Assembly: GCF_000022265.1 (NCBI RefSeq)
Contig: NC_011979.1
Location: forward strand, 1,920,001-1,952,000
Length of the DNA: 32,000 nucleotides
Direction of reading: 5' to 3'
Source: Geotalea daltonii FRC-32
GTDB lineage: Bacteria; Desulfobacterota; Desulfuromonadia; Geobacterales; Geobacteraceae
Below the pieces are notes generated by a model, which worked only from the letters and a program-made list of their open reading frames with translations, did no database searches and was not told the DNA's origin. The position numbers and the translations under genes are program-made. The number at the start of each line of letters is the position of its first letter. Position 1 is the stretch's first letter. Positions 7,298 through 30,261 of this stretch are shown one piece after another.

Positions 7298-7525
7298 GAT
7301 CACTCGCATGCAGTATAGATATATTCAGGTTTAATGATAATTGGCGGATTAGAATTAAAAACAATTTCGGTAAAATAACGGGTGTTCTTCGTGGTTAGGC
7401 GAGGTTGTACTGCCGTCGTCAATATTTAAAAAAACGATAGATATAATCATTTTTTTCGATATTTCCAATTTGACTTTGCCCGAATGTGTTTGTTAGGGTG
7501 TCAGCGGTTTTCAGGAGGCACCGGG

Positions 7526-9949
7526 ATGAATTCTTCAATGGGCAAAATTCGGCCATCCTTGGCTAAGATGTTGGCAGAGGCAATGAATGGCTGCACCGGC
7601 TGCGGCGTCTGCGTTCGGGAATGCGCCTACCTGAAACTGTACGGCACTCCCCGTGACATTGCCGGCTCCTATGATCCGGTGGACTCCAAAAACAGCAGCA
7701 TCTGCTTTGAATGCAGTCTCTGTGGCCTTTGTACGGCTGTATGTCCGGAGGGAGTAGATCCGCAAAAACTATTTCTTGAGATGCGACGCGAGGCGGTGGA
7801 TCGAGGCAAAGGTTCATTTCCTGAACACAAGGGGCTCCTGGCATACGAGCGGACCGGCATGTCGCGGCGTTTCACCTGGTACGGCCTGCCCGAGGGGTGT
7901 ACGACCGTATTTTTCCCGGGTTGCGCTTTGCCGGGAACAAGGCCTGCTGCAACCATGGCGGTCTATGAAAAACTCAAGGAGTCGGTTCCTGCCCTTGGGC
8001 TGGTAATGGACTGCTGCGCAAAGCCTTCCCACGATTTGGGCCGGGAGCAGTTTTTTCAGCAGATGTTCAATGAAATGACCGATTGGTTTAAATCCCACGG
8101 CGTGCAGCGGGTCCTGGTTGCCTGTCCCAACTGTTACAAGGTCTTTTCCGACTATGCGCCCCAGTTTGAGACAAAGACCGTTTATGAACTGCTGGCCGAG
8201 ATCACCCCCGAAAGGATCAGCGATGCCCCTGCTGTGCCGGTGACCATCCATGACCCGTGCGTGATCCGCTTTGACGAAGCGCCGCAGGGGGCAGTGCGCA
8301 CGCTGATTGCAACAGCCGGCCACAGTATTGAAGAGATGCCGCATGCCAGAAAGACTGCCTTGTGCTGCGGTGAGGGGGGAACGGTCAGTCCGCTGGCCCC
8401 GGATCTGGCGGGCAGCTGGGGAGCGCTGCGTGTGGATGAAGCTGCCGGGAGGCGGCTTGTAACCTATTGTGCCGGATGCGCCAACCACCTGGGAAAGAAG
8501 CTGCCGGTAACCCATGTCCTGGATATGCTCTGCTACACTCCCAAGCCATCTTCGGGGCTGATTACCTATGTGAATCGACTGCGTCTCAAATCCCGATTCA
8601 AGGGTACCGTGCCCGCGGCGGTAACGAGGGAGCGGGTTAATCCCAACGCCTCCCGAAGCGGAAAGCTCCGGCCTCTTTTGTTCCTGGCTGCCCTGGCGGC
8701 GGTAATTATCCTGGTCCGGGTGGGTGGGGCAAGCCAATATCTGGAGCCGGAAAAACTGCGGACATTGTTTGCCGGCTTCGGGGTGGTCGCACCACTCGTC
8801 TACATCGCCTGCTACATCGTCGCTCCTGCACTGATGTTCCCCGGCCTGCCCCTCAGTATTGCCGGGGCTACGGTATTCGGGCCATTCTGGGGTGTCGTCT
8901 ATACGATCATCGGCGCCACCTTGGGCGCCTGCGCTGCATTCCTCATCGCCCGTTACGCCGCGCGGGACTGGGTAGAGCGCCGTCTGGTCGGCTCCCGCTG
9001 GAACAAACTGGACGACGAAACCGGGAAGAACGGCTGGAAAGCGGTGGCGGTTACCCGGCTGATTCCGTTGTTCCCCTTCAACCTACTCAATTTTGCCTTC
9101 GGTCTCACCCAAATATCCTTCCTCCAATATGCCGTGGCGACCTTTATCTTCATGCTGCCCGGCACCATTGCCTATATTACCTTTTCCAGTTCATTGCTCG
9201 GGGTATTGAAGGGGAGGGTGTCGCGGGAGTTTTTCATCGGCATTGGTTTGCTGGTGGCGGTCTCGCTGATTCCCAAGGTCGCTGCATGGTACAAAGGTCG
9301 ATCTCTTCAGGCGCCTCGGCCGGCGGTGCCCTGGAACCTGCGGAGAAGCCTGCAAAGAAAGGCGGCCGTTCTTGCCGTGCTCTGTTTATTGTCTGCCGGT
9401 ACGTACACCCTGATCCGGAAATTTTTCTGGGCGCTGGACGCCTATCTGTACACCATCGAGTTCAACCTGCTCTTTGTGGCAAGCCGTTTACAGGATGCAG
9501 AGCTTGCCCGCTTTGTAGAATACCTCGTGCCCATGTCCGGGATGCGGGCCGCAGGAATTGCGCTGGCTTGTCAGGCCATGGCGGCATTTGCTTTCCCGTT
9601 CTCGTCGTTAAGGACCGACGTGGCCTTTACTTCGGCATTCGGCACATGGACCGGCATGGCTTATTTTGCCGGAGCTGACCTGCTGGTGACCGGAGTTGCC
9701 GCTTCGATCGGCAGGTTTATCCTGGGGGACCTGTTGCCGATGTACTACCGGCGCAAGGGAAAGGATACACTGTCTCCGGCGCCCATCTGGATAGGGTGGG
9801 CTGCGGCGGCACTTTTGGCCGTTCCCGGTATTCCGTTAGTGCTGGGCGCTTTGGTCGTCGGCGGATTTCGTCTACATCCCGGCCGCTCGCTTGCAGTCAT
9901 GGCGGCCGGGGTTGCCGTAAGAGCACTGGCTCTGCTGCTGACAAGATAG
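7526..9949 (+). CDS. Fusion protein: HdrD/GlpC-like Fe-S oxidoreductase (2x[4Fe-4S] plus 2 CCG domains) fused to tandem DedA/TVP38 (VTT) membrane domains
   Basis: The start is set at ATG 7526, behind an AGGAGG RBS; the ORF track starts at 7484. Ferredoxin motifs are CTGCGVCVRECAY and CFECSLCGLCTAVCPEG. CCG-type motifs are FFPGCALPG..DCCAKP..CPNCYK and DPCVIRF..LCCGEGG..YCAGCANH. About 430 aa of multi-pass membrane sequence follow, with the TVP38/DedA signature (FPGLPLSIAGATVFGPFWGVVYTIIGATLGACAAFLIARY..RLIPLFPFNLLNFAFG). A second, degenerate copy follows (FPFSSLRTDVAFTSAFGTWTGMAYFAGADLLVTGVAASIGRF). Confidence 0.75.
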   Translation: MNSSMGKIRPSLAKMLAEAMNGCTGCGVCVRECAYLKLYGTPRDIAGSYDPVDSKNSSICFECSLCGLCTAVCPEGVDPQKLFLEMRREAVDRGKGSFPEHKGLLAYERTGMSRRFTWYGLPEGCTTVFFPGCALPGTRPAATMAVYEKLKESVPALGLVMDCCAKPSHDLGREQFFQQMFNEMTDWFKSHGVQRVLVACPNCYKVFSDYAPQFETKTVYELLAEITPERISDAPAVPVTIHDPCVIRFDEAPQGAVRTLIATAGHSIEEMPHARKTALCCGEGGTVSPLAPDLAGSWGALRVDEAAGRRLVTYCAGCANHLGKKLPVTHVLDMLCYTPKPSSGLITYVNRLRLKSRFKGTVPAAVTRERVNPNASRSGKLRPLLFLAALAAVIILVRVGGASQYLEPEKLRTLFAGFGVVAPLVYIACYIVAPALMFPGLPLSIAGATVFGPFWGVVYTIIGATLGACAAFLIARYAARDWVERRLVGSRWNKLDDETGKNGWKAVAVTRLIPLFPFNLLNFAFGLTQISFLQYAVATFIFMLPGTIAYITFSSSLLGVLKGRVSREFFIGIGLLVAVSLIPKVAAWYKGRSLQAPRPAVPWNLRRSLQRKAAVLAVLCLLSAGTYTLIRKFFWALDAYLYTIEFNLLFVASRLQDAELARFVEYLVPMSGMRAAGIALACQAMAAFAFPFSSLRTDVAFTSAFGTWTGMAYFAGADLLVTGVAASIGRFILGDLLPMYYRRKGKDTLSPAPIWIGWAAAALLAVPGIPLVLGALVVGGFRLHPGRSLAVMAAGVAVRALALLLTR

Positions 9950-15082: not shown

Positions 15083-15356
15083 ACGTTACCATCTTGTCGC
15101 GCCGACAGTCAATCCTGCTCGTTTAAGAAAAAAATAATGATAATCACGGTTGACAGGGAAGAGGGCTTCGTGTTATTTGAAATCTACTTTCAGTTTTAAA
15201 AAAGGTGGGCTGGGGAAGTGTATGTGCTGTTGTATAGTGCAATGGCAACTGTGTATAGATTTATTTAAATCGAGAAAATGAAAATCACAATCAGTGGTCG
15301 AAGGAGGGTTAACGTTGCCACGCGTGAAATGTAATCAAAACAAAAGGAGAAAAGAG

Positions 15357-16604
15357 ATGAAAAAATCATTTGTACTTATGGCTGCAGTAACCATACTGGG
15401 CAGCATGGCATCCATGGCCCGCGCGGCAACAGTTGAAGAACTGCAGCAGCAGGTTGATGAATTACGTAACCAGGTGAAGGCGATCAAGGCGCCGGCTCCT
15501 TCAGCGGAGAGTGGAGGGGACGGGTATGCGAAGAAAGTCTGGGATAATACCCGCTTTGGTGGATACGGCGAGCTGGATTACATCGTGACACGTGAAAACG
15601 GCAACGGCAAAGGGAGCAATGCCTTCGATCCGCATCGCTTCGTCCTGTATGTAAATTCCGACCTGAGCGACTGGATCACCTTGAATACCGAACTGGAATG
15701 GGAGCACGGCGGCGTCGGTGGTGACGTGAAGGACGGAAAAAAACTTTCGGGAGAGGTCTTGGTGGAGCAAGCTTTTCTCCAGTTCAAGCTGTCGCGTCCC
15801 CTCAATCTCAAAGCAGGTATCATGCTCGTTCCTCTAGGTGCGACTAATCTCTACCATGAGCCGACAAACTTCAATTCCAGCGAAAGGCCACAGCTGGACC
15901 GTTATCTGATTCCCTCAACCTGGTCTGAGATGGGAGCAGGGATCTATGGCTCTCTGGGGACCAAGGTAGATTACGAGTTGCTGGTGATGAACGGATTGGA
16001 CGGCGCAGGCTTTTCGGCCAAGGACGGCGTCCGTGGCGGCAGGCAGAACCTGAATGCCGACGTAAACAGGAACAAGGCTGTTGCCGGCAGGTTGGAAGTA
16101 CGTCCCTTCACCAACCTCTACACCAACTTCTCCTTTTACACCGCCAATTCAGCCAAGGTAGGCACTGCATACACCACCATCGCAGCCTTTGACGGCAAAT
16201 ACAGCATTGGCGATCTTGACTTGGCAGGAGAATATGTGCATGTCTACCAGGACGATCCTCGCGCATTGGGGGTAACGGATATCGGCCACAACATGTCCGG
16301 CTATTGGGTCGAGGGTGCCTACCATGTCCTGCCGAAGAGCCTGAAGAAGGGTAAGCTGTCGGAGGCCGATGCCCTGATCTTTGCCCGCTATTCTGAATTC
16401 GATACCCAGCAGGGTTCAATAGGTGATCCGAGCAAGGCCAGCGGCAAATACGACCGAAACTACACCAATTTCGGCATCGTCTTCAAACCGACGACAACCT
16501 TATCGGTGAAGGCCGATTACCAGGTTTACGACGACCATCGCAAAGCCGGAGAGAAAGCACTTGATAACGACAAGTTCCAGGTGACGCTTGGTTTCGTGTT
16601 CTGA
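15357..16604 (+). CDS. Outer-membrane porin, phosphate-selective porin O/P-like
   Basis: The start is ATG 15357, behind AAGGAGA. The signal peptide is MKKSFVLMAAVTILGSMASMARA. An N-terminal coiled-coil segment follows, then alternating beta-strand sequence ending in the C-terminal barrel signature TLGFVF. Confidence 0.75.
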   Translation: MKKSFVLMAAVTILGSMASMARAATVEELQQQVDELRNQVKAIKAPAPSAESGGDGYAKKVWDNTRFGGYGELDYIVTRENGNGKGSNAFDPHRFVLYVNSDLSDWITLNTELEWEHGGVGGDVKDGKKLSGEVLVEQAFLQFKLSRPLNLKAGIMLVPLGATNLYHEPTNFNSSERPQLDRYLIPSTWSEMGAGIYGSLGTKVDYELLVMNGLDGAGFSAKDGVRGGRQNLNADVNRNKAVAGRLEVRPFTNLYTNFSFYTANSAKVGTAYTTIAAFDGKYSIGDLDLAGEYVHVYQDDPRALGVTDIGHNMSGYWVEGAYHVLPKSLKKGKLSEADALIFARYSEFDTQQGSIGDPSKASGKYDRNYTNFGIVFKPTTTLSVKADYQVYDDHRKAGEKALDNDKFQVTLGFVF

Positions 16605-16710: not shown

Positions 16711-16746
16711 AAAAAAGGGCACCCCGGTCGGGGCGCCCTTTTTTTC
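16711..16746. terminator. Bidirectional rho-independent terminator between the porin gene and the TPR gene
   Basis: The sequence reads AAAAAA-GGGCACCCC-ggtc-GGGGCGCCC-TTTTTTTT. It is a GC stem with one mismatch, flanked by an A-run and a T-run. Confidence 0.75.
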
Positions 16747-16756
16747 TGTCCATGAT

Positions 16757-17200
16757 TTATCGCAACCCCAGGCGGGAGAGCAGTAATCCCAGATATTTGT
16801 TCAAAGGGTGGCTTCGCTTGAGGGAGGGGAACAGCGGAGATTTCCTTCTTCCGCAATGGGCCAGTTCACGGCTTATCCTGTTGCCGCTGTCGTATTGGAT
16901 GCCGTTACGCAGGGTCTGCAGTGCCTTTTCCTTCTCTCCTGCCAGCCAATAAACCTTTCCCAGGTTGAGGTGCAGAAGCGGGTTGGTCTGGTCGGCAGCA
17001 AGGGCTTCTCTGGCCATGCCTATGGCATCGGCGTATTCGCGCCGCGTTTTAGCCAGGCAGAGAGCCAGGCAGGACAGGTTTTCCGGTGTCTTTTCCAGAG
17101 TCGCTGCCCGCTCGAAACAGGTGCGGGCAAGATAGTCATGATCACGTTCGAGTGCTTCAAGTCCCTTGTCGTGCAGTTCCTCTGCTTCTTTCGACTTCAT
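16757..17200 (-). CDS. TPR-repeat protein
   Basis: The start is set at ATG 17200, behind an AAGAGGTG RBS. The longer track ORF would overlap folA. TPR-like helices are present (AEELHDKGLEALERDHDYLARTCFERAA, LLHLNLGKVYWLAGEKEKALQTL). Confidence 0.7.
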   Translation of the reverse strand: MKSKEAEELHDKGLEALERDHDYLARTCFERAATLEKTPENLSCLALCLAKTRREYADAIGMAREALAADQTNPLLHLNLGKVYWLAGEKEKALQTLRNGIQYDSGNRISRELAHCGRRKSPLFPSLKRSHPLNKYLGLLLSRLGLR

Positions 17201-17267
17201 TGCCACACCTCTTACTGCACCCCGTTCTGTCCAGGTTGTCAGAACCGATGCAGGTATTGAACCAGCT

Positions 17268-17735
17268 TCACTTGACCAGCAGAAGGAAAGTATATGAGGG
17301 AAGATTATCTGCGGTGTTACTTTCCACTTCGACAAATTCTTCGGTTATTTTAGGGAAATAAGTATCACCTTCATAAACCTGGTGGATGACGGTCAGGTAG
17401 ATCCTGTTGGCCAAGGGGAGCGCCTGACGATAAATGTCACCCCCCCCGCAGATAAAGATTTCCTCTACGTCGCCGGCTAGCTTGATGGCGGCAGGCAGAT
17501 CATGGGCAACCAGACATCCCCTGGCTTGATAGTCTTTCTGCCTGGTGACGATGATGTTTTTCCGCCCATCCAAGGGAAAACCGATGCTTTCAAAGGTCTT
17601 TCTTCCCATTATTACCGGATGTCCGAGGGTGAGTGACCTGAATCTTTTCCTGTCTGCCGGCAGGTCCCACGGGATGGTATTTTTATCACCGATAACCCTG
17701 TTTTCTGACATGGCAGCTATTAGCGATATGATCAT
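17268..17735 (-). CDS. folA: Dihydrofolate reductase
   Basis: MIISLIAAMSENRVIGDKNTIPWDLPADRKRFRSLTLGHPVIMGRKTFESIG is the classic DHFR N-terminal signature. The start is ATG 17735, 14 nt after the mutS2 stop. Confidence 0.9.
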   Translation of the reverse strand: MIISLIAAMSENRVIGDKNTIPWDLPADRKRFRSLTLGHPVIMGRKTFESIGFPLDGRKNIIVTRQKDYQARGCLVAHDLPAAIKLAGDVEEIFICGGGDIYRQALPLANRIYLTVIHQVYEGDTYFPKITEEFVEVESNTADNLPSYTFLLLVK

Positions 17736-17748
17736 AAAACCGCCAACA

Positions 17749-20103
17749 TCAGCGCATTGTAGCAAAGGTTACGCCGTTGCCCCCCTCATGCTGATCGCCG
17801 ACGCGGTATTCCCTTACCAGCGGATGACCGTCCAGATGCTCACGCACCCCTTTCATCAATGCACCGGTGCCTGTGCCGTGGATTATCTTCACTTCTCCCA
17901 GTCCTGCGGTCGAAGCCCTGTTGAGGAATGTCTCCAGTTGTGAAAGGGCTTCGTCCACCCTCAATCCCAACAGCCTGAGCTCGTGAGAGGTCTCGGGCTC
18001 CTCGATGGCCTTTCGCCGTGATGGTTCTTCCTTCATCTTCACCCCGCGCTTTAATGCCACATCACCGGCAGATACTTCCACCTCCCTATGCCCTACCTTC
18101 AGTCTTAACCGCTGCTGTTTTTCGTCAATGCGGGCAATGGTGGCGTCAAAGCCAAGGGATCTGACAAAAACAGTGTCTCCCACCGAGAGTTCCTGCAAGG
18201 CAGGGGATACATCTTCCTGGTATTCCCGGAGTTTCTTTTCCAGCTCCCCCCCCATTTTCTCCAGTTTTTTCAGGGAATCCCCGGACTTTTCCCGGCGTGC
18301 CTTGTCAAGGATGGCCCTTGTCTCGCGTTTGACCGTGGTGACCACATCCCTGGCTTCGGCAAAGGCTTTGCCCATTGCCTGCCGTTTTGCTTCTTCAGCC
18401 TGGGCCAGACGCATGGAAAGAAGGCGTTCCCGCTCGGCAGCCCTCTGTTCCCGCGCATCCAGGTCCGCTATCAATTCCGAGTATCGCTGTCGTTTTTCCT
18501 TGAGCTCTGCCAGCAGGGCATGAAAATCGGCCTCTCTCGTGCCGATCATCCTTTCGGCAAAGTCGATGACTTTTGCAGGCATACCATAGCGCCTGGCGAT
18601 GTCGATGGCGTGGGATTGTCCCGGCTCGCCGCTCTGCAACCGGTAAAGGGGGGTCAGGTTAGCATGGTCGAATTCCATGGAGGCGTTGGTCATGCCGGGG
18701 GTCCGATGGACAAAGGCCACTATGTCGGTCAGGTGAGTCGTGGCAATGACAAGGGCTCCCTTTTCCTGCAGCTCTTTAAGAACGCCGCAGGATATGGCGG
18801 CCCCCTGTCCGGGCTCGGTGCCGGTTCCCAATTCATCCAGGAGCACAATACTTAGTTTACCAGTTTTGTGGAGGATTTCAGCCATATTTGCCACATGGGC
18901 TGAGAAGGTGGACAGGCTGCTTTCAATGGATTGGTCATCCCCCATGTCCACGAGCAGGTTGTCGGCCAGGGGAATGGACGAAGAAGGAGCCGCCGGGATC
19001 GGTATCCCGGAGAGCCCCATGGCCAGAAGAAGTCCCACAGTCTTGATGGCGATGGTTTTTCCCCCGGCGTTGGGGCCGGTGATGACCATTATACTGTCGT
19101 CTGCCGGTGGTGTGCCGAGGCGGATATTGAGCGGTACCGGTTCGTGGCCGTTGCCCCTGTCGCGCATAAGCATCAACAGCGGGTGGCGCGCCCCATTCAG
19201 TTCGATTTCACCGCCATCGTTGATAAAGGGTGCATTTGCTCCGAGCTGATCGGCAAACCGGGCTATGCTGTTGAGGGTATCAAGTCGGACGAGGGTCTGG
19301 AATTCCACGTTTATGTCATCGGCGGCAATACGAATCTCCTGGCAGATGGCCCGGATGATGCGGATTTCCTCCCCCTTTATCTCTGCCCCCAGGTTTTCCA
19401 GCTCATTGGCTAGGCTTATGATCTCCAGTGGCTCCATGAAGGCTGTTTCACCGGTATTTGAAACATCGTGGACAACCCCTGCCACCATTCCTTTTGAATC
19501 CATGCGCACTGGAATGACCCATCTCCCCCCTCGCTGGGTTACGAACTCGTCCTGAAGGAAGAGAGCTATCTTCGGCTCGCGGATGATCTCCTCCAGCCGT
19601 TTTCTGATCCGCGCCGTCAGGCTCCTTTTTTTGCCACGCAAATCCTGGAGCAGTGGCGAAGCCGAGTCAAGGATATTGCCCTCGAAATCCAGGGTCGTTT
19701 CCAGTCGATCGAGGAGGTGTGGAAAACCGGTGAGATTTCCCGCCAGGTCCTTGATGAGAGGTATATCGTTGCGATAGGCAAGCTGTTTAGCCAGGGAAGA
19801 GAGCACCTGAAAAAAGGGGGTGAGGATGGCAAGGTCGTGGTGGTCGAGCACTGCCCCTTCCGGGCGCACTGCTTCCAGGAGCGGTGTTATATCCTCAAAG
19901 GTCGATAGCCGCAGGGGTACCCTTACCTGAGCCAGCCTTCTGATTTCTTCAATCTGGCCGAACTGTGTTTCAAGCCTTTCCCTTATATGGAAAGGGAGGA
20001 TTTCCGAGATGAATTTTCGGGAGGGGGCACTATTGGCGAAACCGGCAATGAAGGAAAGAATTTTTTCGAATTCAAGGAGGTGCAGGGAATCCTTTTTTAT
20101 CAT
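17749..20103 (-). CDS. mutS2: Endonuclease MutS2 (MutS-family ATPase with a C-terminal Smr domain)
   Basis: The 784-aa protein has Walker A ITGPNAGGKT, the MutS block STFSAHV, LLDELGTGTEP and THL. A coiled-coil linker is followed by a C-terminal Smr domain (LRLLGLRVDEAL..IIHGTGTGAL). Confidence 0.9.
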   Translation of the reverse strand: MIKKDSLHLLEFEKILSFIAGFANSAPSRKFISEILPFHIRERLETQFGQIEEIRRLAQVRVPLRLSTFEDITPLLEAVRPEGAVLDHHDLAILTPFFQVLSSLAKQLAYRNDIPLIKDLAGNLTGFPHLLDRLETTLDFEGNILDSASPLLQDLRGKKRSLTARIRKRLEEIIREPKIALFLQDEFVTQRGGRWVIPVRMDSKGMVAGVVHDVSNTGETAFMEPLEIISLANELENLGAEIKGEEIRIIRAICQEIRIAADDINVEFQTLVRLDTLNSIARFADQLGANAPFINDGGEIELNGARHPLLMLMRDRGNGHEPVPLNIRLGTPPADDSIMVITGPNAGGKTIAIKTVGLLLAMGLSGIPIPAAPSSSIPLADNLLVDMGDDQSIESSLSTFSAHVANMAEILHKTGKLSIVLLDELGTGTEPGQGAAISCGVLKELQEKGALVIATTHLTDIVAFVHRTPGMTNASMEFDHANLTPLYRLQSGEPGQSHAIDIARRYGMPAKVIDFAERMIGTREADFHALLAELKEKRQRYSELIADLDAREQRAAERERLLSMRLAQAEEAKRQAMGKAFAEARDVVTTVKRETRAILDKARREKSGDSLKKLEKMGGELEKKLREYQEDVSPALQELSVGDTVFVRSLGFDATIARIDEKQQRLRLKVGHREVEVSAGDVALKRGVKMKEEPSRRKAIEEPETSHELRLLGLRVDEALSQLETFLNRASTAGLGEVKIIHGTGTGALMKGVREHLDGHPLVREYRVGDQHEGGNGVTFATMR

Positions 20104-22706
20104 CGATTCTCCGAGAGACGGTGCAAAACCGGTATTTTACCTATTGCCGCTTCCCTGCCGGCTTTGTCCGTACCCAGCTTTATCATGCCGGTCATGAAGC
20201 CGATCAGCTCCAGAAATTGCACCGCATCCGCGATGACCCCGGGGAGTTGGGCCGCAGAGGCCGGCTGGTTATCAGTGTTATAGACAAGTATCTTGTTGTT
20301 TTCAGTTAGAACGATGGCCACATAAACGTAGCATTCTTCCCCACGTTTCATGGCACAGATGTAGCCTTTACAACTCTGACTCGGATTCCCTTCCAACGCT
20401 ACCCGTGCCAGGTTTGAGGATTCATGCAATTCAATGATCTCTTCTTGGGAGGAATATTCAATGCTGTGAAGTGCAGGATCGCAGGTGAAGGTACTGCCGC
20501 TGCCCCCTGTTGAAGAGTTGTTGCTGAAAAAGGTGCCATCATCGTTGTCGGGAAATGCAAATGGATCACTGCCGGCTTCCACGGGCGGTCCGCCGTAATC
20601 GATGGGGTCAGAAGCGGTCATGGCAGCTCTTTTCCATGCCCCTACCGAAGAAACGGATACATTGAGTTCCCCTTCGGAGGCCATCTTGCGCCCGGAAGAT
20701 TTGTCCTGGTGCCTTTTTTTCTCCTCCTGGACGCCAGGGGCCGACGCTGAGCCAGCATTTTCCGATTGGAGGCTGAGTCGTTCTTCCTCAGCTTTCAATC
20801 TTAAAGCCATCAGACGATCTGTTTCTGCTTTCAGGCGGGATGCTTCCTCTGCTGCAGCTTTCCATTCCGCTTCGGCCTTTGTCTTTTCCTCACGCAGTCG
20901 CTCGATCTCTGCCTTATGCAGGCTGATATCTACTGCAGAGGAATGATCTTCCTTCTTTCGATCTTCCTGTACATCCGCAGACCTGTCCACCTTTCCGCCA
21001 GGGGGAGTGGGAGGTTCAGTAACTGCTTCTATGGTTTCTTCACGGCGAGCATCAGAAGCTGTCAATGGGGTGTCTGCAGCCTGATAAGCTGCTTGTTCCG
21101 CAAAGATTTTTTTCTCGAGGATTTTTTCGATCATTATCCTCTCTGCTTCAGCGGCTTCAAGTGCGCTTCTCAGTTCTGCGGTTTTTGCTGACAGCAGCTC
21201 TTCAGCAGCAGCCTTTTCAGCCGCCGCAGCTTTTGCCTCATTTTTTGCACTTATGCACCGTCCCGTTGCACGCTCTTCGAACTGGCCGATGATGTCTACG
21301 GTTTCTTCAGCAGCGATCCTGTCCTCATTGGTCTTTCTTACAGTGCGTCTTACCTCCTCCGCCTGCTCCTCTGCAATCTTTTCTTCCTCGTTTTTCTGCA
21401 GGAACAGCTGTTCTGCTTCCATACGCGCTGCAGTGGCGGCTGCCAGGGTGTCCTGTGCTGCAAGGGCTCTTTTTTCAGCCAGCTTCTCCGCTTCCAGCAG
21501 TTTCACCAATCTTTCTTCTGCAGCAAGTCTCTCCGCCCGGGCTTTTTCAGCAGCCTCTTTTTCTTCCAAAATGGTGTCTGCGGCATTTTTTTCAGCTTCC
21601 GACAGAGCTGAAATCCGTTCTTCAGCAGCCAGTTTTTCAGCTTCAAGCTTTTCCTTGATCTGCCGGGCGATTTCCGCCTTTTCCGCCACCATCTTTTCAG
21701 CTTCCTGCCGCTCTTCGGTGGCCAGTTCGGCGAGACGTCGGTTTTCTTCAGTTTTTATTCTCGCCGCTTCCTCGGCAGCCTTCCGCTCCTCTTCGGCCTT
21801 GACCCTCGCCGCTTCCTCGGCAGCCTTCCGCTCCTCTTCGGCCTTGATCCTCGCCGCTTCCTCGGCAGCCTTCCGCTCCTCTTCGGCCTTGATCCTCGCC
21901 GCTTCCTCGGCAGCCTTCCGCTCCTCTTCGGCCTTGATCCTCGCCGCTTCCTCGGCGGCCTTCCGTTCCTCCTCGGCCTTGACCCTCGCCGCTTCCTCGG
22001 CGGCCTTCCGTTCCTCCTCGGCCTTGACCCTCGCCGCTTCTTCGGCAGCCTTCCGCTCCTCCTCGGCCTTGACCCTCGCCGCTTCCTCGGCAGCCTTCCG
22101 CTCCTCTTCAGCCTTGACCCTCGCCGCTTCCTCAGCAGCCTTCCGCTCCTCTTCAGCCTTGATCCTTGCTGCCTCTTCAGCAGCTTTGCGCTCTTTATCT
22201 GCCTTAGCCTTTGCTGCTTCTTCAGCTTTTTTTCGCGCTGAGTCTTCCTCGACACGGCGCGTTTCTCCGTCTTCTATAGCTGCTGTTTTTTCTGTGGCTG
22301 CCTGTTTTCTGGCAGCCAACCTTGCGGCGCTTACCGGCCGGATAACGCGGATGCCGCGCAGCACAACTTCCCTCAAGGCAACACTGTAATTCAGGTCAAC
22401 ATGCTCCATTTCGAAGCCCATGTCCTTTAAAAATTCCAGGGCTTCCTCCAGCAGCAGTTCAGGTCCCGCCAGGATGGCTGCCTCACCTGCAGCAATGTAG
22501 ACAAGAGCTTTTTTGCTGTTGCGGGTGGCGAGTGCAACGTAGACCTGCAGTGCTTCACCTTCTTTAATTGAACAGATGAATGCTTCGTATAGCTGCTTGG
22601 GAAGGCCGTTTGGAGTGATAGCAACGGCAGATCGCGATTTATAAATGTCTGTAATGTCCGATTCTGCTGCTTCTATGCAGTCAACCGATTCTTTCAAAGT
22701 GAACAT
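20100..22706 (-). CDS. Cytoplasmic 868-aa protein of unknown function: duplicated terminal globular domains joined by a long E/K/R/A-rich helical repeat region
   Basis: A GGAG RBS precedes ATG 22706. There is no signal peptide. The N-terminal segment AFICSIKEGEALQVYVALATRNSKKALVY..ALEFLKDMGF is matched near the C-terminus by GYICAMKRGEECYVYVAIVLTENNKILVY..AVQFLELIGF. About 600 aa of charged helical sequence lie between them, including 11 x 15-aa AEEAAR(V/I)KAEEERKA repeats. Stop TGA 20100-20102 overlaps the mutS2 ATG 20101-20103. Confidence 0.85.
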   Translation of the reverse strand: MFTLKESVDCIEAAESDITDIYKSRSAVAITPNGLPKQLYEAFICSIKEGEALQVYVALATRNSKKALVYIAAGEAAILAGPELLLEEALEFLKDMGFEMEHVDLNYSVALREVVLRGIRVIRPVSAARLAARKQAATEKTAAIEDGETRRVEEDSARKKAEEAAKAKADKERKAAEEAARIKAEEERKAAEEAARVKAEEERKAAEEAARVKAEEERKAAEEAARVKAEEERKAAEEAARVKAEEERKAAEEAARIKAEEERKAAEEAARIKAEEERKAAEEAARIKAEEERKAAEEAARVKAEEERKAAEEAARIKTEENRRLAELATEERQEAEKMVAEKAEIARQIKEKLEAEKLAAEERISALSEAEKNAADTILEEKEAAEKARAERLAAEERLVKLLEAEKLAEKRALAAQDTLAAATAARMEAEQLFLQKNEEEKIAEEQAEEVRRTVRKTNEDRIAAEETVDIIGQFEERATGRCISAKNEAKAAAAEKAAAEELLSAKTAELRSALEAAEAERIMIEKILEKKIFAEQAAYQAADTPLTASDARREETIEAVTEPPTPPGGKVDRSADVQEDRKKEDHSSAVDISLHKAEIERLREEKTKAEAEWKAAAEEASRLKAETDRLMALRLKAEEERLSLQSENAGSASAPGVQEEKKRHQDKSSGRKMASEGELNVSVSSVGAWKRAAMTASDPIDYGGPPVEAGSDPFAFPDNDDGTFFSNNSSTGGSGSTFTCDPALHSIEYSSQEEIIELHESSNLARVALEGNPSQSCKGYICAMKRGEECYVYVAIVLTENNKILVYNTDNQPASAAQLPGVIADAVQFLELIGFMTGMIKLGTDKAGREAAIGKIPVLHRLSENR
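21716..22255 (-). repeat. In-frame 45-bp tandem repeat array: 9 near-identical units at 21761-22165, plus degenerate flanking units
   Basis: The unit is tcgccgcttcctcggcagccttccgctcctcttcggccttga(c/t)cc. Units 21806-21850, 21851-21895 and 21896-21940 are identical to each other. Units 21941-21985 and 21986-22030 are identical to each other. The units encode AEEAAR(V/I)KAEEERKA. Confidence 0.95.
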
Positions 22707-22770
22707 GGAAACTCCATAAACAGGACTTCGGTGATAATAACATTAAAATTTACAACTTTATTCAAAAAAT

Positions 22771-23958
22771 TCACAAAAACCAGCTCACTGGTGCGCAGAC
22801 GCGCTCCATCATGCGAACCAACCAACCACGCTGCTCATGCTCAGCAAGTACAATCCTTCTTGATCTTGCCAGGTCAGCCATCAGCATCTGCGAAACCTGC
22901 GCGCCGAACGATGGGCTGTCGACAATGACATTGACCTCATAATTGCGATGAAAGCTGCGCTGGTCCAAATTGGCCGAGCCTATCACCGACCAGCAGCTGT
23001 CGATTATCATGACCTTCGCATGAAGAATAGTTCCTTGCCGTTCGTAAATTTCGATGCCGTTCTTCAACAGCGATGCGTAATAGCTTCTGCTGACGAGGCG
23101 GACTATGGGGACGTCGCTTTTGGCCGGGAGGATGAGGCGCACCTGTACTCCTCGGCCGACAGCGCGAAGCAGCGAGCGGATTACACGTGGCCCGGGGACA
23201 AAGTAAGGATTGGCGATGACGATGCTTTCCGAAGCACCGGCAATAGCCATGCGGAAGGCGCTGCGAATGAATGAACGGTTATGGTGGGGGCCGCCATTGA
23301 CGATAAGCACTTCGTCCTCACCGGCACTGTCCAGCAGGTAAGGGTCAACGCAACCTTCAGGGATGGTCGACCTCTCCCTGTGCCAGTTTTCCCGGAAAAG
23401 CCGGTTCAATTCCGGTACGGCAGGACCTTCAAGGCGTATCCCCACATCGCGCCAACGGTCGAAGTCCTCGCCGCATCCGGCATATTCATCGCCGATGTTC
23501 AGTCCGCCGGTGAAGGCTGTTCTGCCATCGATGACGGCAATTTTCCGGTGATCGCGCTTATCGAACCAGCCTATACCCTTGCTGAAGGTGGGGGGATTGA
23601 AGGGGCAGCAGACGATCCCCCCTTTCTCAAGCCTGCGAAAATAGGCACCGGGGGTGTCGAAGCAGCCGATATAGTCGTAGAGGAGATAAACCTTTACTCC
23701 GCGTTCTGCAGCCTGGAGAACGGCATCAGCCAGGGCACGGCCGGTGTTGTCGTCACGGATGAGATAGAATTCGAGGCAGATTACCTTTTCTGCCTGGCCA
23801 ATTGCCTGAAACAGAGCAGAAAAAAACTCTTCCCCGTTTCTGAAGAGTTCCACCCTGTTTCCTCTGGAGGCAGCGGCATCGGTGTTTCTTCTGAACATGT
23901 TGAAGAAGCGGGGGGTGCGAAAGATGCGATATTTTCTTTTCCGCCGTATTAGGGACAT
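22771..23958 (-). CDS. cls: Phospholipase D-family cardiolipin synthase (ClsB-like, no N-terminal TM helices)
   Basis: Two HKD motifs are present: HRKIAVIDGRTAFTGGLNIGDEY and HAKVMIIDSCWSVIGSANLDQRS. Confidence 0.85.
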   Translation of the reverse strand: MSLIRRKRKYRIFRTPRFFNMFRRNTDAAASRGNRVELFRNGEEFFSALFQAIGQAEKVICLEFYLIRDDNTGRALADAVLQAAERGVKVYLLYDYIGCFDTPGAYFRRLEKGGIVCCPFNPPTFSKGIGWFDKRDHRKIAVIDGRTAFTGGLNIGDEYAGCGEDFDRWRDVGIRLEGPAVPELNRLFRENWHRERSTIPEGCVDPYLLDSAGEDEVLIVNGGPHHNRSFIRSAFRMAIAGASESIVIANPYFVPGPRVIRSLLRAVGRGVQVRLILPAKSDVPIVRLVSRSYYASLLKNGIEIYERQGTILHAKVMIIDSCWSVIGSANLDQRSFHRNYEVNVIVDSPSFGAQVSQMLMADLARSRRIVLAEHEQRGWLVRMMERVCAPVSWFL

Positions 23959-24002: not shown

Positions 24003-24038
24003 CGAAAAAAAGTAAAGGCGCGGTTTAAAGCCGCGCCT
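24003..24038 (-). terminator. Rho-independent terminator of the aspA-nfu transcript
   Basis: On the minus strand, AGGCGCGG-ctttaaa-CCGCGCCT forms an 8-bp stem followed by TTTACTTTTTTT. Confidence 0.7.
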
Positions 24039-27893: not shown

Positions 27894-28904
27894 TCAGGGG
27901 TAGGAGGGACTACACCCATAGATGCCGGTCATTTCCATTGCGATGGCCTTCAATTCTTCCCGCAGGTCGGACGGTTCCAGGACCTCCGCATGACGGCCGT
28001 AGGAGAGGATCCAGGCGATCATCTCCATCCTTCCTCCTGCCGTAAATGAGAGTACGATGCTGCCATCCTGCTCTTGGCGGATCGTTTGCGTCGGGTGCCA
28101 GATCCGGTCGCTGATGGTATGGGCAATGGTGGGGGAAAAGCGGATGCTGACCGCCATCGGTGTTTCTTCCACCATGCCGAATGCCGATTTGAACTGGTCC
28201 TCCGGGCGGAATTCCTCCGGCATCTCGAAGCGTTCCTTCGTCACTTGGACTTTTTTTATCCGTTCAGCAGCGAAGGTGCGGATTGCCCGGCGGTTGTGGG
28301 CATAGCCCAGCAGGTAGAGCCCTCCCTTGTTGTAGATGAGAGTGTAGGGATCGACCTGGTATTCCTCGGCAGATTTTTTGGTGGGGGGGCCATAGGTGAT
28401 GGTCAAACGATACTGGTAGAGAAGAGCGTCGCGGATGGTTTTCAATTGTTCGGCGACACCGCTGTAGTCGCGTGCCCCCTGCAAGAGCGGCAGGGACACC
28501 CGGGCTATGCGGTCCATATGGGCGGCATAGCGTGGGGGGAGAACCGAGTTGACCTTGTGAAAGATGGCATCCATGTCTTCGTGGAAGGACGTGCCCTTGA
28601 GAATGTCAAGCTGGGAACGGAGGAAGGAGAGGGTCATCAGTTCCTGGAGAGTGAAGTTGATGGGGGGAACATCCTTGAAGCGGGTGAGGAAGCGGTAGGT
28701 CTTCGAGCCGTTGACCCAGTCGGAGACCAGCGGGTAGCCGGCCTCCTGGATAGCGTTCAGGTCCCGGTGGATGGTGCGGCGGTTGACTCCCCCTTCTTCG
28801 GCCAGTTCTTCTATGGTGATGCCATGGCGGGCCTCGATCAGCCGGATGATGTCATGGAGCCGTCCGGCCTGGGAATACTTCTTTGCCGGTTTACCCTTCT
28901 GCAT
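27894..28904 (-). CDS. HTH-WYL-domain transcriptional regulator
   Basis: The N-terminal winged HTH reads RLHDIIRLIEARHGITIEELAEEGGVNRRTIHRDLNAIQEAGYPL. The central WYL domain reads VDPYTLIYNKGGLYLLGYAHNRRAIRTFAAERI. The start is ATG 28904 behind AGGAG, 10 nt after the helicase stop. Confidence 0.8.
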   Translation of the reverse strand: MQKGKPAKKYSQAGRLHDIIRLIEARHGITIEELAEEGGVNRRTIHRDLNAIQEAGYPLVSDWVNGSKTYRFLTRFKDVPPINFTLQELMTLSFLRSQLDILKGTSFHEDMDAIFHKVNSVLPPRYAAHMDRIARVSLPLLQGARDYSGVAEQLKTIRDALLYQYRLTITYGPPTKKSAEEYQVDPYTLIYNKGGLYLLGYAHNRRAIRTFAAERIKKVQVTKERFEMPEEFRPEDQFKSAFGMVEETPMAVSIRFSPTIAHTISDRIWHPTQTIRQEQDGSIVLSFTAGGRMEMIAWILSYGRHAEVLEPSDLREELKAIAMEMTGIYGCSPSYP

Positions 28905-30261
28905 TTGGCTCCTGTCCCCCTTCACCGGCAGGTTTCTTCCTTTTCGGACGCCGCCGCCTTTTTTTCTTTACCGCTTCTCCCTCTACCGCCACGGTTTCAA
29001 CCGGTTTTTCCACTGTCCTGGCAGGAGCTTTCCCCCCTGATTTGCCGTGGTTTCTACCCTTTGGTTTGGCTGCAGGTTTCGATTCAGGCTTCGGCCGTGG
29101 CTTGGTCCGCTTGTAATCATGGACAAACAGCTCGTCTTCGGCCCATTCAACAGGAATCTTTTCTTTTATGTATTCGTGTATGTCCTCGATGTGGAAAGCA
29201 CCGTCTTCATCGGCCAAGGAGATAGCTTTGCCCTCGGCCCCGGCCCGGGCGGTGCGGCCGATACGGTGGACATAGTCTTCCGCATCCTGGGGCAGGTCGT
29301 AGTTGATGACATGGGAGACCCCGTCGATGTGCAGACCCCGGGAGGCGACGTCAGTGGCGATCATGATGGGAAGCTTGCCGTTTTTAAAGTCCTCCAGAAT
29401 GCGCATTCGCTTGCGCTGCTCCACATCGCCTGAGATGACTCGCGCCGGGAATTCATTGGCGTTGAGCCGGTCGTAAAGATATTCGGCTTCCCGCTTGGTG
29501 TTGACGAAGATCATGGTCCGGTCCATGCCCTTTTTCCTCAAGAGCCCCAACAGCAGCGGGAATTTCTCCTTCCTCGCCACATGGTAGAGAACCTGCTCCA
29601 CCCGCTCCGCCGTCATTTGCTCAGGGGTGACGGCCACCTTTTCCGGCACGTTCATGAACTCGTAGGCCAACTCCATGACCCGCTGGTTGAGGGTCGCCGA
29701 GAACATCAGGTTCTGCCTCGCGTCAAAGGGGGGAAGACGGCGGAGGATGAAGCGCAGGTCGGCAATGAAGCCCATATCGAACATGCGGTCGGCTTCGTCG
29801 ATGACAAGCGCCTCGATGTTCTTGAGGCTGTAGACCTTCTGCTTCAGGTAGTCGATGAGCCGCCCCGGTGTACCGATGACAATATCTACCCCCTCCTTGA
29901 GGGCGTTTTTCTGTTTCATGTAGTCGACGCCGCCATAGATGGCCTGGATGTTGAAGCCCGTATATTTGCCAAGGGCCTGTGCATCCTTTTCGATCTGCAC
30001 CACCAGTTCCCTGGTCGGGGCAAGGATCAGCGCCCGTGGATGGTGTTCGGTGCCGGCTTTTTCCTGGTTCAATAGTCTGGTGAAGAGGGAGATGAGAAAG
30101 GCGGCGGTCTTGCCGGTGCCAGTCTGGGCCTGTCCGGCCACATCTTTTCCCAGAAGAGCCGGAGGCAGGGCTTTTTCCTGGATAGGGGTACAATCGGTGA
30201 AGCCGGTGTCGGCGATGCCCTTCAGCACCTGTTCCGGCAGATTCAAATCGGTGAATTTCAT
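28891..30261 (-). CDS. DEAD-box ATP-dependent RNA helicase (RhlB/RhlE-like) with a basic C-terminal tail
   Basis: The Q motif is GFTDCTPIQ, motif I is AQTGTGKT, DEAD is present, SAT is present, and motif VI is HRIGRTARAG. A Lys/Arg/Pro-rich tail follows. Confidence 0.9.
   Translation of the reverse strand: MKFTDLNLPEQVLKGIADTGFTDCTPIQEKALPPALLGKDVAGQAQTGTGKTAAFLISLFTRLLNQEKAGTEHHPRALILAPTRELVVQIEKDAQALGKYTGFNIQAIYGGVDYMKQKNALKEGVDIVIGTPGRLIDYLKQKVYSLKNIEALVIDEADRMFDMGFIADLRFILRRLPPFDARQNLMFSATLNQRVMELAYEFMNVPEKVAVTPEQMTAERVEQVLYHVARKEKFPLLLGLLRKKGMDRTMIFVNTKREAEYLYDRLNANEFPARVISGDVEQRKRMRILEDFKNGKLPIMIATDVASRGLHIDGVSHVINYDLPQDAEDYVHRIGRTARAGAEGKAISLADEDGAFHIEDIHEYIKEKIPVEWAEDELFVHDYKRTKPRPKPESKPAAKPKGRNHGKSGGKAPARTVEKPVETVAVEGEAVKKKRRRRPKRKKPAGEGGQEPNAEG

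Follow-up and report, generated by a model that had tools for sequence, protein, structure and literature searches.

What purpose is served by a protein whose two ends carry similar globular domains and whose middle is a helical region several hundred residues long? The question is raised by a gene in a 32,000-nucleotide (nt) stretch of the Geotalea daltonii FRC-32 chromosome (contig NC_011979.1, positions 1,920,001 to 1,952,000), referred to below as the window, in whose numbering positions are given unless another contig is named. An earlier note, made from the sequence alone, had claimed an open reading frame (ORF) of 868 amino acids (aa) at 20100-22706, and the frame was borne out, with an ATG start on the minus strand. 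Its product (the rod protein, encoded by rod gene X) was found to belong to a family of cytoplasmic rod proteins which carry paralogous alpha/beta domains of ~125-130 aa at their extreme ends, and which match none of the family or structure libraries searched. The gene and its parts are as follows:

20100..22706, minus strand: rod gene X, an ATG-started ORF of 868 aa (stop codon 20100-20102)
22712..22715, minus strand: Shine-Dalgarno-like GGAG, 5 nt upstream of the ATG at 22706, as read from the sequence
22317..22706, minus strand: N-type terminal domain, residues 1-130, from Met1
21747..22286, minus strand: ER/K-type charged helix, residues ~141-320, with ~10-11 tandem 15-aa units AEEAAR(V/I)KAEEERKA
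21072..21746, minus strand: amphipathic helical rod, residues 321-545, weakly coiled-coil-like
20937..21071, minus strand: Pro-rich break, residues 546-590, recognised by composition
20772..20936, minus strand: second, short conserved helix, residues 591-645, charged and amphipathic
20493..20771, minus strand: tail linker, residues 646-738, predicted from composition to be disordered; acidic, aromatic and rich in Gly/Ser/Pro/Asp
20553..20567, minus strand: DPFAF short linear motif, residues 714-718, ~25 aa before the C domain
20103..20492, minus strand: C-type terminal domain, residues 739-868, up to the stop codon

Firstly, the relationship between the two ends was determined. When residues 1-135 were compared with residues 721-868 by BLASTP, 29% identity was obtained over 129 aa with a single gap (E=8e-16), and the family profiles of the N-type and C-type domains aligned with 99.9% probability over 129 columns (E=5e-36, hhalign). 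The internal duplication proposed in the earlier note is hence real, but it extends over ~130 aa (residues 2-130 and 740-868) and not over the ~70 aa quoted there. Likewise, the two peptide pairs given in its support were located at residues 42/781 and 89/828, with 13 of 29 positions identical by hand count instead of 13 of 30.

To find relatives, a profile of the two window domains was run by exhaustive HMMER against 1.84 billion cluster representatives (50% identity). This retrieved 481 clusters at E<=1e-3, 266 at E<=1e-10 and 108 at E<=1e-30. The layout of the best 150 of the 481 representatives was then recorded, a protein being counted as two-headed if one domain started at or before residue 15 and another ended within 25 residues of the C-terminus. 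With both query domains taken from the window protein, 124 of these 150 representatives were two-headed; protein length ranged from 426 to 1160 aa (median 721) and the inter-domain linker from 169 to 898 aa (median 460). Entries with one domain mostly look like fragments from short contigs. Three relatives (P0001, P0002 and P0028) carry 3-4 domain copies joined by Pro-rich linkers and have no helical rod, which indicates that the rod is not indispensable to domain function.

All named sources were Geobacteraceae, Desulfuromonadales or "Deltaproteobacteria" metagenome-assembled genomes, Geotalea and Geobacter among them, and every source name in the family reads "hypothetical protein". By contrast with the HMMER result, word-index searches of 5.8 billion proteins returned no match for the N domain, none for an 8-sequence alignment and one for an 84-sequence alignment; given the 481 clusters found exhaustively, these negatives reflect the tool and not the biology. 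The exact sequence of the window protein had no entry in the assemblies index consulted.

Within the family, the two heads are distinct. The best match of an N-type domain was another N-type domain in 133 of 139 cases, and that of a C-type domain another C-type domain in 124 of 126, while the N and C domains of the same protein are only ~28% identical. Since each type matches its own kind best, the duplication must be ancient, and the two heads have been kept apart ever since. Family-wide, both types are acidic, with a median net charge of -3 each.

We next turned to the region between the heads. The earlier note had described a helix of about 600 aa in the window protein. A long helical region is indeed present; however, within the 608-aa inter-domain region the stretches free of Pro/Gly-dense windows are residues 131-474, 482-558 and 578-649, i.e., ~493 aa in three segments, with the Pro-rich break between two of them and 344 aa as the longest helix-compatible stretch. 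The proposed ER/K character also applies only in part. Residues ~141-320, about 180 aa, have the sequence character of an ER/K single alpha-helix (SAH) domain: 54-61% of residues are charged, 4-7% are large hydrophobics, 10-12 opposite-charge pairs at i/i+4 occur per 28 aa, and the best heptad a/d occupancy is only 0.1. Ala is abundant in this SAH-like segment, and V or I occurs once in every 15 residues. The remainder is not ER/K-like. Residues 321-545 are nearly devoid of Pro and Gly and in most windows contain 14-29% large hydrophobics, and the best-register a/d occupancy (L/I/V/M/F/Y/W) is 0.3-0.5 over residues 321-545 and 591-645, mostly 0.3-0.4 in the former. The disordered Gly/Ser/Asp-rich linker expected after the helix was found as a tail of ~90 aa, which holds the segment ELNVSVSSVGAWKRAAMTASDPIDYGGPP, kept among orthologs. 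In line with the absence of a signal peptide or transmembrane segment noted earlier, the N-terminus is acidic and the maximal Kyte-Doolittle mean over 19 residues is 1.6, located inside the C domain.

At the DNA level, the ER/K segment corresponds to an array of 45-nt units at 21760-22193 (9.6 copies, 95% matching; Tandem Repeats Finder). Eleven copies of the 15-aa unit had been claimed, whereas the exact count is 9, becoming 10 with one relaxed copy and 11 only if the degenerate first copy is included. The 45-nt units are ~92% identical to each other within the window genome and ~91% within Geotalea sp. SG265 (L001, 3362-6004), yet ~80% between the two, and the Arg codon used in them is AGG in the former and CGC in the latter. 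This excess of within-genome identity points to concerted evolution, despite which the length has been roughly maintained: repeat-unit number is ~10-12 across several Geotalea genomes.

The family as a whole shows a common anatomy with a variable rod. The earlier note had called for the distribution and the rod-length variation; the former is that of a Geobacter-group family, and the latter is given by a helical part of median ~286 residues (range 41-716), set between a flexible head linker of median ~47 aa and a flexible tail of median ~79 aa. Along the linker, Pro/Gly-dense context amounts to ~70% in the N-proximal part, 4-7% in the middle and ~70-87% before the C domain; accordingly, both domains sit on flexible Pro/Gly-rich linkers in most relatives, and, as no central Pro/Gly break exists, an extended rod is favoured over an SMC-like hairpin. 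The rod is present in all two-domain members, although its sequence is poorly conserved. Amphipathic-helix-like character was detected in 69% of linker windows, whereas a share of SAH-like windows above 25% was confined to the window protein and to P0003, its close relative (2 of 125 members); the ER/K segment is thus an innovation of the Geotalea clade. Elsewhere in the family the rod resembles an amphipathic coiled coil and dimerisation is likely from its sequence, which makes the picture of a rigid monomeric ruler too simple.

The linkers flanking the heads differ in charge. A basic stretch of 30 aa lies at and just beyond the N-domain end (median net charge +3; positive in 85% of members), and an acidic, aromatic stretch of 50 aa leads into the C domain (median -6; negative in 86%; 6.9% F/W/Y). 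In 17 of the 124 two-headed relatives a DPFxF motif, mostly DPFAF[LM], precedes the C domain by 25-33 aa, and motifs of the DPFAF[LM] type occur in about 17-25 members (~14-18%); other subfamilies show DDDFFP, NEFGSF or PPPHVVRRPPPPGA at this position. DPFAF[LM] resembles the FtsZ C-terminal peptide, the SSB tail and clamp-binding motifs; an assignment to any of these was considered and dropped, as no exact fit was obtained and only ~14-18% of members carry it.

The absence of a named family for the terminal domain was confirmed in every resource queried, and neither library nor structure searches matched it to a characterised family. No family was hit by the whole protein at E<=1 in Pfam-A and NCBIfam, and eight domain copies searched at E<=10 gave only scattered and inconsistent single-member Pfam matches, the best at E=0.03 and below the cut-offs. 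PADLOC and PHROGs scans with the whole protein and the domains were empty. An 84-sequence profile searched against PDB sequences found at best 43 residues of a designed repeat protein (E=0.015, chance level), and a 2-sequence profile gave only chance-level matches. Nothing relevant was encountered in the literature searched for a Geobacter coiled-coil hypothetical protein with MutS2.

AlphaFold2 models of the domains were built from two-sequence alignments, and one of five models was confident for each. The best C-domain model (predicted local distance difference test score, pLDDT, 84.4; predicted template modelling score, pTM, 0.80) consists of seven strands followed by helix, strand, helix and strand, and in the best N-domain model (pLDDT 82.6) consecutive beta strands give way to helices and short strands. 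The order of elements is closely similar in the two, with strands that include a long three-strand meander followed by helices alternating with short strands. Foldseek comparisons of both models with the PDB, and of the C-domain model with BFVD, returned nothing at E<=0.001 for these shallow models; the weak neighbours had E>=0.035, template modelling scores (TM-scores) <=0.44 (<=0.37 against the PDB) and root-mean-square deviations mostly of 5-17 Å. As the models derive from two-sequence alignments, this negative is not conclusive: the fold may be new, or the models may be too poor. None of the neighbours (PsbP/DcrB/Eag, Med18/20, Ego3, Whirly, lipocalins and TBP) was adopted, all being non-significant. 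The Mog1/PsbP/DcrB/Eag-chaperone-like, Med18/20, Whirly and lipocalin folds resemble the models in size and in combining an antiparallel beta-sheet with one or two helices; however, the matches are non-significant and no membership is claimed. Nucleic-acid binding, to which weak Whirly, PC4 and WGR neighbours might have pointed, is judged unlikely because both domains are acidic.

A frame that crosses a repeat array could be an artefact, or a decaying frame kept open by low complexity, and two features of the locus would fit: long shadow ORFs are open across the array (21253-22389, plus strand, 378 aa, and 21755-22255, minus strand, 166 aa; Ser/Ala-rich or Arg/Lys-rich and not genes themselves), and the ortholog on L016 (3393-6001) is split by a frameshift in the rod into two overlapping ORFs. 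Substitution ratios (dN/dS, nonsynonymous over synonymous rates, by the Nei-Gojobori method) were computed for seven segments against the SG265 ortholog, with dS ~1-2 throughout and near saturation. The ratio was 0.11 in the N domain, 0.04 in the repeat rod, 0.15 in the amphipathic rod, 0.13 in the tail linker and 0.17 in the C domain. The Pro-rich break was the least constrained part (0.55; 31% identity to the SG265 ortholog), and no ratio could be given for helix 591-645, where dS was saturated and protein identity was 87%. An ORF merely held open by the repeat is thus excluded, and the artefact explanation, which also runs against the full-length frame retained in several species and the relatives in 481 clusters, is effectively refuted. 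On this substitution pattern, rod gene X is a genuine, expressed-type Geotalea chromosomal gene under purifying selection.

Orthologs at the same locus, between a PLD-type gene and mutS2, were full-length (743-880 aa) in at least five genomes or metagenomes; these include the 880-aa protein of SG265 and copies of 831, 743 and 792-804 aa on three metagenome contigs. Truncated or frameshifted copies occurred on three further draft contigs. In the draft genome of G. toluenoxydans (L004, 1-1875) the contig ends inside the 45-nt array, which, together with the split frame on L016, makes it evident that the repeat breaks or corrupts assemblies.

In order to establish whether the neighbourhood informs on function, we examined the genes around rod gene X and around its relatives. 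The relevant features in the window are:

17749..20103, minus strand: mutS2, with MutS_V, MSSS and Smr (Pfam); its start overlaps the rod-gene stop (ATGA at 20100-20103)
22771..23958, minus strand: PLD-type (cardiolipin synthase-like, cls) gene, 64 nt upstream of rod gene X, with two PLDc_2 stretches (E=3e-45)
16711..16744, minus strand: strong terminator-like hairpin beyond the TPR gene, with 15 pairs and a T run, from a terminator scan
24016-24038: terminator-like hairpin at the opposite end of the putative operon, from the same type of scan

The two hairpins bracket a putative operon cls-X-mutS2-folA-TPR, and the genes around rod gene X are housekeeping genes (DnaB, RecO, FabMG, DHFR and fumarase). 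Identity of the window MutS2 to its Geotalea counterparts is 98% in G. toluenoxydans and 85% in SG265, which places the window on a Geotalea chromosome. The order cls-X-mutS2 is kept in L001, L016, L017/L020 and L018, with a gap of ~220 bp between the rod gene and mutS2 in L017, and L019 shows the PLD and rod genes before the contig ends. Conversely, in the more distant Geobacteraceae L003, L006 and L009, mutS2 has no rod gene upstream. Eleven other family members are essentially stand-alone genes in unrelated neighbourhoods: neither mutS2 nor a PLD gene adjoins any of these 11 outside the Geotalea clade, and no neighbour recurs there. The link to MutS2 or ribosomes hinted at in the earlier note consequently lacks family-wide support, and the connection between rod gene and mutS2 is lineage-specific synteny, not a trait of the family.

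Several loci carry further genes close to family members. Genes similar to bioF/H/C lie upstream in three related loci, P0001 (L029, 7001-9259) is immediately followed by genes for a TPR protein and RodZ, an MshEN-REC gene precedes P0042, and multi-haem cytochrome c7 genes are found near family members on several contigs. The TPR gene of the window (16757-17335, minus strand) encodes a small TPR-like protein that is also present in L018 (8252-8725) and, upstream of mutS2, in L003, L006 and L009; it has a conserved C-terminal tail (...PPPxPFLxRxxPxNxxxGxxxxKLGLR) and accompanies mutS2 across Geobacteraceae on either side of that gene.

Taking these results together, the architecture is best explained if the rod protein is a cytoplasmic bivalent structural spacer or cross-linker, to which we assign a probability of roughly 0.45. 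The rod would hold two putative binding domains apart, over ~50 nm for the longest uninterrupted helix and ~70 nm in total, and in most relatives it would probably be a dimeric coiled coil. Each domain type would engage its own partner, or the N- and C-types would engage each other, and the presumably co-transcribed place between cls and mutS2 would be a lineage-specific arrangement that gives no clue to family-wide function. A tether or ruler, as the earlier note suggested, stays plausible. Some of the observations weigh against this explanation. The case for a spacer is drawn from architecture, the domain fold is weakly modelled (one confident model in five, TM-scores <=0.44), the terminal domains may instead have a ligand-binding or enzymatic role, three relatives with 3-4 domains lack the rod, heptads are weak in the rod of the window protein (a/d occupancy 0.3-0.4), and the family-wide context is not conserved and offers no functional support. 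The main rival shares its parts with the spacer and is not mutually exclusive with it: a self-assembling cytoskeletal or scaffold protein, in which the N-type domain of one molecule would bind the C-type domain of another and so build a meshwork or head-to-tail chains; the basic patch that follows the N domain and the acidic, aromatic one that precedes the C domain would assist, and the behaviour is likened to that of FilP, Scy and crescentin. We consider this rival rather unlikely, even though the two paralogous types are invariably inherited as a pair, with one N and one C per protein, the flanking linkers are of complementary charge family-wide (median +3 vs. -6), the rod is amphipathic in 69% of windows and a stand-alone gene is typical of structural genes. 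Both domains are themselves acidic (median -3 each), canonical coiled-coil-rich proteins polymerise via their rods and have no conserved globular ends, and the weak heptads of the window protein count here too.

Two further explanations fit the data much less well. That the protein is an accessory factor which recruits or spaces MutS2 (in ribosome-collision rescue or recombination control), or the cardiolipin-synthase-like enzyme, would agree with the ATGA overlap of the rod-gene stop and the mutS2 start, with the kept cls-X-mutS2 order (cls-X in L019) and with the hairpins around cls-X-mutS2-folA-TPR. However, it appears improbable in view of the 0 of 11 members outside the clade that adjoin mutS2 or a PLD gene, the three genomes (L003, L006 and L009) with mutS2 and no rod gene upstream, and the gap of ~220 bp in L017; moreover, the unit also contains folA and a TPR gene, which gives it the look of a mixed housekeeping operon. 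Even less credit is given to an SMC/Rad50-like fold-back, with an intramolecular antiparallel coiled coil and one pseudo-dimeric head formed by the N and C domains. Homologous domains do flank a long helical region and co-evolve as a pair, but Pro/Gly density is lowest (4-7%) at the rod midpoint, where breaks are not enriched, the two rod halves of the window protein differ strongly (ER/K repeat vs. amphipathic helix), Pfam and NCBIfam reveal no ATPase or other domain, and the flexible linkers are unequal, with medians of 47 aa on the N-domain side and 79 aa on the C-domain side.

Comparison with known systems places the rod protein among proteins of similar build. ER/K SAH domains are found, e.g., in the medial tail of myosin VI/X and in caldesmon. 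Residues ~141-320 share with them the high E/K/R/D content, the dense i/i+4 E-K/R pairs, the lack of a hydrophobic seam and, presumably, the task of keeping functional ends apart as a stiff spacer; they may form a monomeric helix. The Geotalea segment differs in being bacterial and cytoplasmic, in its strict 15-residue period encoded by a 45-nt DNA repeat, in making up only a third of the rod and in being confined to the Geotalea clade of the family. A second group of reference is formed by long coiled-coil rods and tethers such as crescentin, FilP/Scy and the eukaryotic golgins/EEA1. As in bacterial coiled-coil-rich proteins and tethers, the helical rod is long, variable in length and poorly conserved, there is no enzymatic signature and the gene stands alone; unlike these, the two-headed family has conserved paralogous terminal domains on flexible linkers. 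With SMC, Rad50 and MukB it has in common that hundreds of helical residues lie between globular parts at the two termini, whereas it has no ABC ATPase match in Pfam or NCBIfam and no central hinge or break, and its termini are full paralogous copies instead of halves of one domain. Finally, TolA domain II and similar spacers are also repetitive helices rich in Ala/Glu/Lys/Arg; by contrast, the rod protein is cytoplasmic, with neither an N-terminal membrane anchor nor a match to TolA domain III.

Rod-shaped proteins with binding modules at their ends, ER/K helices included, are a known kind of object, to which the rod protein is assigned, while the family, the terminal domain and the strict two-headed paralogous layout have no match in the family, structure or literature resources searched. 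The inventory of bacterial rods and tethers thereby gains a sizeable family (481 clusters) of sharply defined, conserved architecture. Should its heads turn out to bind defined partners, this would suggest a form of cytoplasmic organisation in the Geobacter group, which has been studied for extracellular electron transfer and in which we know of no candidate for such organisation. It is a tentative and rather doubtful proposal that the terminal ~125-aa module represents both a new fold and a new interaction domain, in a Desulfuromonadales/Geobacter-specific cytoskeletal or tethering system whose heads would pair with each other or with two cellular structures, and in which a rod adjustable in length through expansion of the 45-nt repeat would impose a spacing of tens of nm inside the cell. 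Because helix length is set by a homogenised 45-nt repeat, the ruler hypothesis is directly testable by altering repeat number. Caution is advised in mining sequence data for such proteins: the repeat breaks draft assemblies, and word-index homology searches miss almost the whole family, so that negatives from the latter should not be read as absence.

Some other genes of the window were also recorded. A plus-strand ORF of 436 aa at 15294-16604 has a signal-peptide-like N-terminus, a short coiled coil and a beta-rich remainder ending ...VTLGFVF; it looks like an outer-membrane porin and has no Pfam match at E<=1e-3. At 7484-9949 (plus strand), 821 aa combine a 4Fe-4S dicluster and two CCG cysteine-rich domains (HdrD/GlpC-like) with a VTT/DedA membrane domain in an unusual fusion. 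A regulator with helix-turn-helix, WYL and WCX parts is encoded at 27894-30261 (minus strand), directly downstream of, and overlapping, a DEAD-box helicase gene.

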